35,301 nt of DNA from a virus. Below are positions 14,789 through 19,606 of the stretch, in pieces. Each line of letters begins with the position of its first letter. Position 1 is the first letter of the stretch. A program made the translations under genes and the position numbers. The notes under the pieces are model-generated. The model had not been told where the DNA came from and did not search any database. It saw only the letters and a list, made by a program, of their open reading frames with translations. The stretch lies in the IMG/VR virus record IMGVR_UViG_3300028242_000098; one strand, given 5' to 3'.

Positions 14789-15724
14789 TTAGCTTCTCAC
14801 AAAATAAATTGTATCCTCATCATAGCTACCTAACGCATCATATGCTGCCTGAGTCATAAATCTAAACTTACCAAAGACACCATATTCAACACCCATATAA
14901 ACTGGCCCTGTTGATTTTGCCAAATACATCTGTATACTTCCAGAATGCTTTAAAGGTATCACTGAATACTGGTCAAGTGTTTCAGTATCCCATGAACTGC
15001 CGTTATACTCTTTAATGGCCATGACAGAACTGGTTACAATAGCTACACGATAACCTTTACTGACACCTGTCGGCAATGTTGTTGTGGTTTGTATTTTATC
15101 AACTGGTAACTTCCATCCGGCCTCCTCATCACTGCCCTGACCTGTTGCACCAGTATCGCCTTTGTCTCCTTTATCACCTTTACTTCCGGTTGCTCCAGTT
15201 GCACCTGTAGCTCCAGTATCTCCTTTTTCTCCTTTTATGTTTCCTACGTTTTCCCAAGCAGCTCCATTCCAGACATAAAGAGATCCGTTTACTAAATAGC
15301 TATCTCCATCATTACCAGTTGGATGTTCAGCTATTAATTCCTCATAAGTATTATACGAACCTTTAATAGTGATGCCAGTGCCAGTAGCTCCAGTGTCCCC
15401 CTTTGCCCCGGCCGGTCCAGTATCGCCAGTAGCTCCTGTATCTCCAGTATCTCCTTTAGGTCCTTGTTGTCCTTTCTCACCTGTTGCTCCAGTATCACCT
15501 TTTACAGAGCCTGCATTTGCCCAGCCGTTTTCGTTCCAGTAGTAATAGCTGCCATCTACTATATATGCATCACCTAAACTACCTGAAGGGTGAACTGCAA
15601 TGAACTCTGAGTAATTATCATAATGTCCTTTTATTACAGTTCCAATTCCAATGTCTCCAGTATCTCCTTTAGGTCCTGTATCTCCTCTCACAGGTCCGAT
15701 TTCTATCCATTCTTTTTCAGCCAT
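14789..15724 (-). CDS. Collagen-like fibre protein with two intact globular modules
   Basis: Gly-X-Y (GDT/GAT/GEK) runs; two KGxY...HPxGxxGDxYxVxGxxYxW....WxNxGxxKG modules; C-terminal TQAAYDALGSYDEDTIYFV. Confidence 0.85.
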   Translation of the reverse strand: MAEKEWIEIGPVRGDTGPKGDTGDIGIGTVIKGHYDNYSEFIAVHPSGSLGDAYIVDGSYYYWNENGWANAGSVKGDTGATGEKGQQGPKGDTGDTGATGDTGPAGAKGDTGATGTGITIKGSYNTYEELIAEHPTGNDGDSYLVNGSLYVWNGAAWENVGNIKGEKGDTGATGATGATGSKGDKGDKGDTGATGQGSDEEAGWKLPVDKIQTTTTLPTGVSKGYRVAIVTSSVMAIKEYNGSSWDTETLDQYSVIPLKHSGSIQMYLAKSTGPVYMGVEYGVFGKFRFMTQAAYDALGSYDEDTIYFVRS

Positions 15725-15725
15725 C

Positions 15726-16808
15726 TTAATCCTTGCTCCATGGTTCTATAACTGTTTCTCTGAATCTTATTTTTCCACCGTAATCATAAATCATGAATGC
15801 TGGAAATACTGTGTCCATATTAGCTATTGCATCTGGAAGTGAGGATGTTTCATAGCTATAATATGTTGTTGTTCCCCAGTAATCTGTGATTGTAGCTTTA
15901 ACATATGCTCCATCATACCATAAATTAAATTTATAGGCACCATTAATGCTTAACTGTCCGGTTGTTGTATTTATCGTATTTATTGTATGATCGGTTCCTG
16001 AATATTGCAATCCCTTTTTACCGGGATATGCTCCAAGTTCCAGTATCTTGTTGTCACGGTAGTGTGTTAATGTTTTTGAATTCAGAAGGCAAATTCCTGA
16101 AGCCCAACCGCTTGATGATGAATACATTGGACTTACAAAAGATGAGAAGTGAATTCCCTTTTCAGATAAATCCACACCTTCAATTAAACTGGTTGGTATC
16201 AAATAAGCGGCCTGTGCTGCACCGTAGGTTTTTGAAATTTCAATCGCATTAACATAATCATAAGAACTGTTGAATTCAGCCACTTCACTAACGGTAATGT
16301 CTGCAGAACTTGGGTATTTAACTAGAGTATATGAATCAGAACTCACAGTATATTCGTCTTTATATCTGAATGCCAATACTTCCTTTTCAAAATGCACTCC
16401 TACATAATCATTAACTAATGCTTTGATTGATAATGTATCTCCAGCATTTTCAGGAACATATGAACACCGAGCAGTGCCGTTATCGAATAATGATTTGATA
16501 TGGATTTTCTCTTCACCGTTGATGCTTATGATAAAATCCGCAACCGCACCATCAGGCAATTCTGCATCATCATCACAATCCTTGTAAACACTAACATTAA
16601 CTGGTTGGCCGACTGCAGCCGCCTCAGTGTATGAGCCTCCAGGTGCTCCATTAGTTGGATGAACTAAAAACCATACTCTTCGTGCTAATGTGAAAACATC
16701 ATCATCGCTATAATAGACTATTCCGTGCTCTGTTAATAATTCCCTCAATGCATTCCTTACGGCTGTTAATTTTGTATTTGTATTGATTACATCACTTGCA
16801 ATTGACAA
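15726..16808 (-). CDS. Putative receptor-binding/fibre-tip protein
   Basis: TTG start with GGGTGA RBS; helical N-terminus MSIASDV...LTAVRNALRELL; Ig-like middle and beta-sandwich/lectin-like C-terminal half. Confidence 0.5.
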   Translation of the reverse strand: MSIASDVINTNTKLTAVRNALRELLTEHGIVYYSDDDVFTLARRVWFLVHPTNGAPGGSYTEAAAVGQPVNVSVYKDCDDDAELPDGAVADFIISINGEEKIHIKSLFDNGTARCSYVPENAGDTLSIKALVNDYVGVHFEKEVLAFRYKDEYTVSSDSYTLVKYPSSADITVSEVAEFNSSYDYVNAIEISKTYGAAQAAYLIPTSLIEGVDLSEKGIHFSSFVSPMYSSSSGWASGICLLNSKTLTHYRDNKILELGAYPGKKGLQYSGTDHTINTINTTTGQLSINGAYKFNLWYDGAYVKATITDYWGTTTYYSYETSSLPDAIANMDTVFPAFMIYDYGGKIRFRETVIEPWSKD

Positions 16809-16823
16809 TTTTAATCACCCCTA

Positions 16824-17666
16824 TTATAATATGTTTAATCTGCATGGTGAGGCCAACTCCAGTCTAGGAACATATGCATTTCTTCCAAGGCCTGTTCCAT
16901 GGCTTACATAACTCATCTTCAAATCTGCACTGGAATATCCGGATGGTAAATCTGATATGTTAATCCAATCATTCCATAGGAATTCCTTATCCTTAAACCA
17001 GTATACTGCCAAATAATCCTCATCATGTATCATGTGTAATCTGAATTTTTGGTTTGTGGAATCATATGTTCCATAATCCATTTTTGTTATTGTTGGTGTT
17101 GTACTGTTATTGAATATTGCATATGCCGGATGATATGTTCCTGAATCTAATGTAATTCCAATATAAAAACCTGAGAATGGAGAATTTGCTGTTGGAGTAC
17201 CATAGCTAAAACCTACGCCTGAAAAAGCATTATTGTTAAAGTTAGCCATTGCTCTTCCATATACTACCAAATCAAAACTATCTGTTGGATTGATTGTGCC
17301 TGTGTTGAATAATCCCCATGCTGTTGCATTTGAACTCTTTGCTAAAGATTGAAGATACCAGTAATCGTTATCTTCATAGGTTGTTGGATTGTATCTGTTC
17401 CATGAATATACATCACATCCGGTTACTGCAACACGATCTCCCAATTGGCCAGAATCATATGTTGAACTTCTCTCAATCTTCCAGACTGGAGGATTGCTTA
17501 TCATACTTATTAACTTTAAAATTGAATCATTGCTGGAATGGCTTGTGCTTAAATCATCCAGTTGATTTTCAAGTAAAGTTTTTAAACTTGTTAATCTGGT
17601 GTTCAGTTCCTGCTCATTAGATAGAATATCGGAAAGGTCTGGAGCTGTATATGACATATTAATCAA
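16824..17666 (-). CDS. Putative receptor-binding/fibre-tip protein
   Basis: ATGA-coupled to the short collagen gene; helical N-terminus similar to its neighbour (LNTRLTSLKTLL...SILKLI); aromatic beta-rich lectin-like body. Confidence 0.5.
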   Translation of the reverse strand: MINMSYTAPDLSDILSNEQELNTRLTSLKTLLENQLDDLSTSHSSNDSILKLISMISNPPVWKIERSSTYDSGQLGDRVAVTGCDVYSWNRYNPTTYEDNDYWYLQSLAKSSNATAWGLFNTGTINPTDSFDLVVYGRAMANFNNNAFSGVGFSYGTPTANSPFSGFYIGITLDSGTYHPAYAIFNNSTTPTITKMDYGTYDSTNQKFRLHMIHDEDYLAVYWFKDKEFLWNDWINISDLPSGYSSADLKMSYVSHGTGLGRNAYVPRLELASPCRLNIL

Positions 17667-18055: not shown

Positions 18056-18073
18056 GAGGGATTTTAATGGATT

Positions 18074-18946
18074 TTATTGGTAAACGTAAAGCTCTCCGTC
18101 AACAAGGTATGCATCACCAGTGGTTCCGGTTGGATGTGCTGCAATTAAATCAGCATAACTTGCATAACTTCCTTTGATGATGGTACTGTATCCTTGAGGG
18201 CCTTGCGGTCCGGTTTCACCAGTGTCACCTTTAGCACCGGTATCCCCAGTATCTCCCTTATCTCCAGTGTCACCTTTGTCCCCGGTTCTTCCGGTATCAC
18301 CTTTTGCTCCGGTTTCACCAGTAGCACCAGTGTCCCCTTTATCACCGGTTAATCCTTGTGGTCCAGTTTCTCCAGTATCTCCTTTCTCACCTGTAAGACC
18401 TGTTGCACCTGTGGCACCAGTGTCACCTTTGGCACCTGTGTCTCCTTTAAGACCTGTGGCACCAGACATGTCTGTTACGAAGCTGAATTCACTTGCACCT
18501 TTGAGGTATAACTTTGCGTTATCTGGATCATCTACTGTTGATTGGATTGCTACAAACATTCCTTCAGGAACATTACTTGCATCAGCTTCCATTGCAGAAA
18601 CTGATTCGTAGGTTTTATAGATTGAGAATGGATCTCCTGTTTCACCGGTTGCACCGGTTGCTCCAGTATCACCTTTTAAACCTTGCTCACCAGTGTCTCC
18701 TTTTGCACCGGTTGCGCCGGTTGCTCCAGTGTCACCTTTTTCACCAGTTGCTCCGGTAGCACCTGTTGCACCAACATCACCGGTATCGCCTTTAGCACCA
18801 GTGTCACCTTTTTCACCAGTTAAGCCTGCTAATTGTTCTGGTGTGAATTTGTCGTAGGTGAATGCGTCTCCAGTGTCACCCTTTTCTCCTTTCTCACCAG
18901 TATCTCCTTTTGGTCCTTTGATTACACCAACACTTTTCCATGCCAT
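18074..18946 (-). CDS. Long collagen-like fibre protein
   Basis: Two long uninterrupted Gly-X-Y tracts rich in GDT/GAT/GET, separated by a globular insert; N-terminal [11 protein letters not shown]; ends in a truncated module ...GELYVYQ. Confidence 0.9.
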
Positions 18947-18976
18947 ATATAAACACCTCTATTTATTTATTTTAAA

Positions 18977-19606
18977 TTAATCATTATGCCAAACGAATAG
19001 TTCACCTGCAACTAGGAAGGCATCTCCTTCGTTGGCAGTTGGATGTGCTGCAATTAGTTCTTCGAAAGTATCATAAGACCCGAGGATTACAGTCGCAGCA
19101 CCTGTATCTCCGGTGTCTCCTTTCTCTCCTTTACCTCCAAGACTTACTTGGAAACAATTGACATAATTGTATTCATCAGAGTCTGCAACAGGATGAAAAG
19201 CAAGGAACTCCCCGGCATTGTCAACAATAGCTCCATTTGGTGTCAGTTTGATTCTGTCACCAGCTTTAACAATTTGACCTGAAGCCAGTTTCAATCTGTA
19301 AAGTCCTCCGAGTAGTAGTACACTTCCTTTTCTCTCGCCGTTTGTCATTACAACCGGTTCATTGACAAGGACGCCGACAGGAACTTCTGTGTCGTCACCA
19401 GTGTATTTTCTGAGTGACTCCTTTCCTATTGCTGATTTGTCTGAAATACAGAGTATGTCGTCAACCATGCACTTATTGGAATACTCGTATCCAAGACTAC
19501 TACCAGATGTTGTTATTACATTATCGACTAATGTTTTAACTCCATCATCCAATAAGAAGGTAGTAATCTCCTTTCTTTCTTCCAATAAAACAATTGTATC
19601 ATTCAC
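18977..19606 (-). CDS. Decoration-protein paralogue B fused to a short collagen stub and truncated module
   Basis: N-terminal ~155 aa align with 12996..13496 (IVLLEERKEITTFLLD...GYEYS...RLKLASG...DRI...HPV..SD.YNY); then [13 protein letters not shown] and ILGSYDTFEELIAAHPT...GELFVWHND. Confidence 0.8.
   Translation of the reverse strand: MNDTIVLLEERKEITTFLLDDGVKTLVDNVITTSGSSLGYEYSNKCMVDDILCISDKSAIGKESLRKYTGDDTEVPVGVLVNEPVVMTNGERKGSVLLLGGLYRLKLASGQIVKAGDRIKLTPNGAIVDNAGEFLAFHPVADSDEYNYVNCFQVSLGGKGEKGDTGDTGAATVILGSYDTFEELIAAHPTANEGDAFLVAGELFVWHND

Follow-up and report, generated by a model that had tools for sequence, protein, structure and literature searches.

Chaperone-usher pili and the archaeal threads and bundling pili are built by donor-strand complementation, in which a subunit with an incomplete fold receives the missing last strand from the N-terminal end of the following subunit. 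Viral fibres of several segments are known from the T4 long tail fibre (gp34-gp35-gp36-gp37) and the branched tailspikes of CBA120 (PMC8825819), where separately encoded trimeric segments are joined non-covalently in a set order and the distal parts are exchangeable. In the multiplexin collagens XV and XVIII, trimerization domains initiate the in-register assembly of the triple helix (PMC7852327). The collagen-like fibres of bacterial phages and prophages contain a module of 49 residues, which is placed between tracts of Gly-X-Y repeats within one chain. Here we describe a cluster of fibre genes (positions 14,789 to 19,606, minus strand) in a virus DNA of 35,301 nucleotides, IMG/VR record IMGVR_UViG_3300028242_000098, which is referred to in full as the window. 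In this cluster the same module family occupies the same site between Gly-X-Y tracts, but it is divided over the C-terminal end of one protein and the N-terminal end of the next. An earlier note on this DNA had proposed that the two parts, a socket and a plug, belong to separate polypeptides and complete each other's fold. Our analysis favors the view that the halves dock as proposed and thereby join separate fibre proteins, with an estimated probability of about 0.65.

The window belongs to a Methanobrevibacter (pro)virus. The relevant genes are all located on the minus strand of an element with low guanine-plus-cytosine (GC) content, which encodes a large terminase, HK97-type capsid proteins and a pseudomurein endoisopeptidase. 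The closest named relative is Caudoviricetes sp. vir323 (BK063679.1), a circular 34-kb genome with Methanobacteriales given as host. Identical or near-identical proteins are carried by Methanobrevibacter contigs of up to 383 kb; therefore, the element also exists as a provirus. The hosts of this virus are rumen and gut methanogens.

A 49-residue module divided over gene ends

A hidden Markov model (HMM) profile, A1, was built from four intact module copies, and all six frames of the window were scanned with it. The 311-residue terminal fibre (14789..15724) contains two intact modules (15497-15643 and 15230-15376), each of which matched the full length of the profile, positions 1-49, with ∼105 bits. 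The C-terminal ends of the 209- and 290-residue proteins matched the first part of the profile with 51-53 bits, and the N-terminal ends of the 290- and 107-residue proteins matched its last part. Together, the sockets (positions 2-36/37) and the plugs (positions 39/40-49) span the profile without overlap. No match was obtained in the six frames of the window beyond the intact copies, the socket ends and the plug starts.

The first protein of the series is a 209-residue anchor protein (18977..19606), which consists of a beta-tulip-like base domain (residues ∼12-155), five Gly-X-Y triplets and socket 1 (residues 172-209, 18980..19093; module positions 2-37, 50.6 bits) with the end ..GELFVWHND. 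It is followed by a 290-residue extender (18074..18946). This protein starts with the 11-residue plug 1 (18914..18946; module positions 39-49), which leads immediately into Gly-X-Y repeats; its collagen tracts flank a small globular insert, and it ends in socket 2 (residues 255-290, 18077..18184; module positions 2-36, 52.6 bits) with ..GELYVYQ. The 107-residue adaptor (17663..17986) comprises plug 2 (MAWINVGNLKG, 17954-17986), short collagen tracts and the conserved C-terminal end ..SNLTLLGS. The collagen family PF01391 was matched above its gathering score of 27.2 bits by the 290-residue protein (93.7 bits) and the 311-residue protein (41.5 bits). Thr is abundant at the Y position of the collagen tracts. 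On re-reading of the window, the open reading frames (ORFs), termini and motifs were all as the earlier note gave them, including the two intact modules of the 311-residue protein and the two proteins that end in the first part of the module only.

Outside the window the module is widespread and was found in 2245 clusters at 50% identity, often with several copies per protein. It was intact in all 53 cultured bacterial phage records with at least 80% of the query matched, mostly in tail fibre proteins; carriers include tail fibre proteins of Erwinia, Escherichia, Bifidobacterium and Clostridioides phages. Sequence searches with the module yielded no Pfam entry and no PDB relative. GYF_2 and PFU matches in long homologues were weak and partial, covered a hairpin only and were rejected.

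The AlphaFold2 model made with 28 diverse sequences contained a core of beta1-helix-beta2-beta3-beta4 with a predicted local distance difference test (pLDDT) score above 90. The cut between socket and plug falls into the turn between beta3 and beta4. This agrees with the proposal that it precedes a missing last strand, here of a predicted beta-alpha-beta-beta-beta fold. The turn is also the sole place of variable length, with 4-8 residues in the 28 diverse copies. Mutual information in 190 non-redundant copies paired beta3 with beta4 and linked V44 of the plug to beta1 (positions 2, 5 and 7) and beta3 (positions 33 and 35). Because V44 covaries with both strands, the plug strand seems to be part of the core.

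The best structural match of the module model was the N-terminal domain of a Geobacillus virus tailspike, with a modest Z of 6.2. Comparison with the collagen XVIII/XV trimerization domains gave weak scores with both VIA (Z 4.8, root mean square deviation 2.7-4.1, 51-55 residues aligned) and Foldseek (template-modelling score 0.5, E value 0.17-0.4); the alignment with the socket takes in the first ∼40 residues of the multiplexin domain. The model of the 209-residue protein had low pLDDT in the socket region, where the alignment was shallow, and this was not read as an incomplete fold. A complex prediction with three sockets (residues 150-209 of the 209-residue protein) and three plugs (residues 1-44 of the 290-residue protein) scored 0.34 compared with 0.19 for the control and was counted neither way.

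Both sides of the cut are conserved. Among the matches listed for the 209-residue family (83-96% identical), all 120 clusters have VWHN or VWHND as the C-terminal end. In the 107-residue family, the N-terminal end M-x-W was present in ∼110 of 120 clusters, whereas identity in the remainder of the protein dropped to ∼60%; the first 11 residues were the best conserved part (0.93 compared with 0.70 for residues 12-60). The ratio of nonsynonymous to synonymous polymorphism (pN/pS), determined from 16-18 loci, was 0.06 for socket 1 and 0.10 for socket 2 at a pS of 0.38-0.47, and 0.39 and 0.28 for the 11-codon plugs. The sockets are under strong purifying selection.

Chain layouts and the proposed joint

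A scan with one genome per species yielded 47 loci, among which the Methanobrevibacter proviruses form three layouts. Group 1 (the window, vir323 and 14 more loci) has three chains and two split modules, in the order base-socket, plug-290-socket and plug-107-LLGS. In a variant of this group, L012, the second socket is directly followed by a 466-residue terminal fibre with a type-A plug start. Group 2 (five loci, 51-59% identical) has a base-socket protein and then a single chain of 290-like and 107-like parts; one module is split, and the now-internal junction has none. In group 3 (about nine loci), a single chain with uninterrupted collagen and no module runs from the base to LLGS. In all three layouts, a split module is present at every chain break and absent where the chain is continuous, as predicted for a dedicated connector and not for a randomly broken gene. 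The fused relatives further indicate that the pieces belong to one fibre. The earlier note had suggested a survey of homologous loci for the same split point. In 23 Methanobrevibacter (pro)virus loci the split was conserved, and a gene with a type-A plug lay directly after all 39 socket ends; two seeming exceptions were traced to the search pattern and the length cut-off.

On the basis of these layouts, we propose that the fibre is made of separately translated trimeric collagen-like proteins, which would be joined head to tail via the split connector. The upstream protein would stop after beta3 as a socket, and the downstream protein would open with beta4 as a plug and continue straight into its Gly-X-Y repeats. 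Three plugs would complete three sockets around the fibre axis, fastening the 209- to the 290-residue protein and the latter to the 107-residue protein. The completed connector would probably set the register of the next triple helix.

Several points weigh against this model of the fibre. The binding is deduced from sequence, and sockets and plugs are too conserved to reveal pair-specific covariation. The structural matches of the module fold are middling only (Z 4.8-6.2). The capsid location proposed below is derived from fold similarity with Z ≤7.6 and from the position of a paralogue beside the capsid genes. Finally, plug-like N-terminal ends occur without a nearby socket, both as a second plug type, plug B, in the socketless loci of group 3 and in some unrelated phages (L063, L067 and L075); the strand may therefore also act alone or with other acceptors.

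Such solitary plug-like ends also fit a different explanation, namely that the boundary is no more than a landmark of recombination. The conserved module DNA at the ends of genes would then serve as a crossover site for swaps of fibre cassettes, which are clearly shuffled between relatives; the truncated module would fold without its last strand, the N-terminal strand would be an autonomous collagen cap, and the proteins would be attached to the virion by other means. However, split modules were found only at chain breaks and never in continuous chains, the adjacency of socket and plug held in 39 of 39 cases, and strong purifying selection acts on a fold from which a strand predicted to sit in the core would be missing. 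We therefore regard a mere landmark as unlikely and prefer docking of the two halves.

The socketless plug B also bears on the third plug of the earlier note, the N-terminal end MAEKEWIEIGPVRG (15683-15724) of the 311-residue terminal fibre. It fits the pattern W-x-x-[VI]-G-x-[VI]-[KR]-G yet represents a distinct type, with the strand E-W-I-E-I-G-x-V-x-G at the start of 311-type fibres. Two of the three plugs, at the 290- and 107-residue proteins, stand by their match to the end of the module. The third is not supported as written, because plug B is found in loci without sockets and because the C-terminal end of the 360-residue protein upstream (15726..16808, ending in ..IEPWSKD) is unrelated to the module. 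An hhalign comparison of ..IEPW.. C-terminal ends with the module gave no similarity (probability 0.1%). The 360-residue type usually precedes a plug-B fibre, and in some loci a different protein takes this place.

Two further recurrent adjacencies were observed. A C-terminal end of the type ..SNL(T/N)LLGS was followed 21 times by a protein with an N-terminal helix starting ..PDLS..(I/V)L, and an ..IEPW.. end was followed 20 times by a fibre with the E-W-I-E-I-G start of plug B. These may be other kinds of joint. In the window, the first adjacency involves the 280-residue protein (16824..17666; N-terminal helix motif ..PDLSDIL..), a type that is always located directly after an ..LLGS end and is a probable distal part of the fibre. 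The 311-residue fibre carries a Phage_tail_C tip.

Irregular copies of the fibre genes were also encountered. In L045 (1596-2588), a Methanobrevibacter metagenome-assembled genome, an intact-type module is broken by a frameshift, which reflects either an error of sequencing or genuine decay of the copy, in contrast with the clean splits elsewhere. L009 (5270-7407) contains the remnant of a fibre gene, P0394, within a defence island that also carries McrBC-like, TIR and Vsr genes, and a 290-like insert is joined to an intact module by recombination within the Gly-X-Y repeats.

Separate genes at the two junctions

At junction 1, a spacer of 30 nucleotides (18947..18976) separates the 209- and 290-residue proteins. 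After the TAA stop it contains a further in-frame TAG and the ribosome-binding site AGAGGTG (18954-18960). The spacer of junction 2 has 87 nucleotides (17987..18073), with in-frame TAG and TAA after the TAA stop and the ribosome-binding site AAGGTGA (17994-18000). It also holds a hairpin of 17 base pairs (18021-18052) followed by seven U (18014-18020), for which RNA folding gave -24.4 kcal/mol and a z of -7.4. A terminator scan missed this hairpin because loops were limited to ≤8, and it was revealed by folding. A similar hairpin was present in three relatives with differing inner stems. Spacer lengths in relatives were 27 or 30 nucleotides at junction 1 and 11, 81, 87 or 94 nucleotides, in different frames, at junction 2. 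Each of the plug genes is equipped with an ATG and a Shine-Dalgarno site of its own. The clear ribosome-binding sites, extra in-frame stops and terminator that had been reported for these junctions were thus all recovered.

In the more distant group 2, the spacer is reduced to 2 or 3 nucleotides, and a GGAGG site within the last W-E-E codons of the socket precedes the ATG by 2-3 nucleotides, consistent with coupled 1:1 synthesis. The final Trp-Glu-Glu codons of the socket encode the GGAGG of the plug gene in L029 (1590-1610), L032 (3955-3975) and L033 (2480-2495), each with a stop-ATG gap of 2-3 nucleotides. Tight translational coupling in this two-chain group may explain the conserved acidic tail of the socket.

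Contigs assembled from four metatranscriptome libraries contained spacer 1 unchanged, and no joint that removes either spacer was found in them. Several of these contigs end near the hairpin (18040-18078); neither termination nor expression is claimed from contig data. In two of the RNA-library runs, contigs of low depth (∼4) join 18876 to 17832 (minus strand) with 29 other letters between. This joint looks like a related strain in which the N-terminal part of the 290-residue protein runs directly into the C-terminal part of the 107-residue protein, with socket 2 and plug 2 lost together.

These data bear on recoding, in which ribosomes would read through, hop or shift at the junctions and produce the module intact in one long protein. 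All three ORFs of the window are in one frame, and in group 2 the socket and plug of L029 and L033 are in frame and separated by a single stop and one codon, as recoding would allow. However, the L032 spacer of 2 nucleotides puts the plug out of frame, two or three stops are present at or in each spacer of the window, and the junction 2 spacers differ in frame and contain the terminator hairpin. Neither a conserved frame nor a single recoding site across relatives, the marks of programmed readthrough or bypass, was found. Because spacer frames and lengths vary and spacer-less transcripts are absent from the RNA-library contigs, readthrough, hopping and splicing are very unlikely, the more so as each plug gene has its own initiation signals. 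The genes are truly separate and encode separate polypeptides, as the earlier note had concluded.

Gene decay, in which one fibre gene was broken by nonsense mutations in a dying provirus, can draw on degraded related loci (the L009 remnant in the defence island and the frameshifted L045) but is practically negligible, because the stop position is identical in 120 clusters and 23 loci across 51-99% identity and hence not unique to this genome, pN/pS of the sockets is 0.06-0.10, the ribosome-binding sites are conserved, and vir323, a near-complete circular genome, has the same layout.

Fibre base, neighbouring genes and other viruses

The AlphaFold2 model of the base domain had a pLDDT of mostly 80-90. 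The top 10 VIA rows were all capsid decoration or head-fibre chains with Z 5.9-7.6, below the value of 8 that the tool treats as the clear level. Z values of 5.0-7.6 were obtained with the phi29 head fibre gp8.5 and the decoration proteins of HFTV1, BB1 and T1 and lambda gpD. Two paralogues of the domain are encoded in the window. A bare base domain of 166 residues (12996..13496, 53% identical) is located directly upstream of two HK97-type capsid genes (11102-12981) and is the only one adjacent to them. A more distant paralogue of 255 residues (21147..21914, 24% identical) differs in its C-terminal extension. Because the base of the 209-residue protein is decoration-protein-like, the assembly is probably a head fibre. 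This resemblance fits the capsid decoration link suggested earlier, but at middling scores (Z ≤7.6) and with capsid binding only predicted.

The HK97-type capsid genes are tandem paralogues of 312 and 308 residues, both annotated as major head proteins in vir323. Upstream of the base gene, a glycosyltransferase-like gene (19603-20196, minus strand; weak Anp1 and Glyco_transf_21 matches) ends four bases inside the 209-residue gene, and in all related loci examined it is likewise located ahead of the base gene. Two overlapping genes of 97 and 111 residues (14107-14725, minus strand) are flanked by the terminal fibre gene and the decoration-like gene; judged by eye, their motifs resemble those of a nucleotidyltransferase/HEPN pair. 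Hairpin motifs that recall the last two strands of the module were noticed at the C-terminal end of the 255-residue paralogue (..RFVWEDNKLYMEW.., 21147-21250, minus strand) and in a 65-residue ORF (GHWFYWNGTKYVDSG, 20889-21086, minus strand).

Other viruses were searched with sequence patterns. Patterns taken from the four-copy alignment were too narrow and gave 2 viral loci only. The pattern M-x-W-x-x-V-G-x-I-[KQ]-G was found on 14 further viral contigs with 40-66% GC, and in most, but not all, of these the match opens a collagen-like gene. L064 carries a chain of three consecutive genes, ..GDYYIDTNTGLLYQL.., then MAWVVVGSIKG..collagen..GDLYINTQNGDIYQLS, then MTWDLKGNVKG..collagen..tip. By its sequence this is one clear bacterial-phage example of the split chain, unrelated to the window virus, and with at least one such contig the design is not confined to viruses of archaea. 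In L061, an ORF ends in ..GDVYIDVESGDLYHFIF ∼70 nucleotides before the next ORF, which holds MTWVLVGNIKG. P0244 was rejected as a bacterial socket end, as the gene runs off the end of the contig. The 14 bacterial genome loci contained intact modules only.

A broader proposal is that the portable split trimerization module is a general plug-and-socket connector in archaeal and bacterial viruses. The socket trimer would capture the next protein and template the register of its triple helix, and multi-gene fibres, which in the window are probably head fibres held by a decoration-protein base, would be lengthened, shortened or re-tipped by gaining, losing or fusing genes. We advance this generalization tentatively, at slightly less than even odds.

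Comparison with known systems

If the halves bind, they constitute a compact, specific joint of ∼50 residues by which trimeric fibres can be chained. Such a joint would explain how receptor-binding parts are shuffled without intragenic recombination in viruses of methanogens and apparently in some phages, and it could serve as a natural split tag in the construction of collagen-mimetic or trimeric protein assemblies. It would also supply a reading rule for clusters of fibre genes, in that a socket end followed by a plug start indicates the same fibre in that order. The natural layouts with one, two and three chains are ready-made experimental controls. On the virion, the structure would be unusual among archaeal viruses as an elaborate head fibre. 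In the literature on strand complementation in phage fibres and on collagen fibres of Methanobrevibacter viruses, no such joint was found described.

The proposed fibre shares its separately encoded segments, set order and exchangeable distal parts with the T4 and CBA120 assemblies. However, the joints of those assemblies use dedicated N-terminal attachment domains, unlike the split module. To our knowledge, those joints are not formed by the halves of a single domain that is also present in uncut form. The phi29 head fibre gp8.5 resembles the 209-residue protein in that a fibre extends from a base. In contrast with gp8.5 and the decoration proteins, the fibre described here is collagen-like and would be continued via separate polypeptides, with binding to the capsid only predicted.

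The trimerization domains of the multiplexin collagens XV and XVIII (PDB 3n3f and 3hsh; PMC7852327) are like the module in their size of ∼50 residues, their position beside the collagen helix and their four strands and one helix. The two have no sequence similarity and weak structural scores, and the multiplexin domain is metazoan and never split. The closest analogy in principle is with the donor-strand pili, where the completion of a fold by the strand of the next subunit is the same as proposed for the window fibres. Of the 19 window proteins scanned, none matched a Pfam family of chaperones or ushers. The pili use an Ig-like fold, whereas the module is predicted as a small alpha/beta unit. 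Furthermore, the pili are formed by one polymerising subunit, whereas the system of the window would join different proteins in a fixed order into trimeric collagen fibres carried on a virion.

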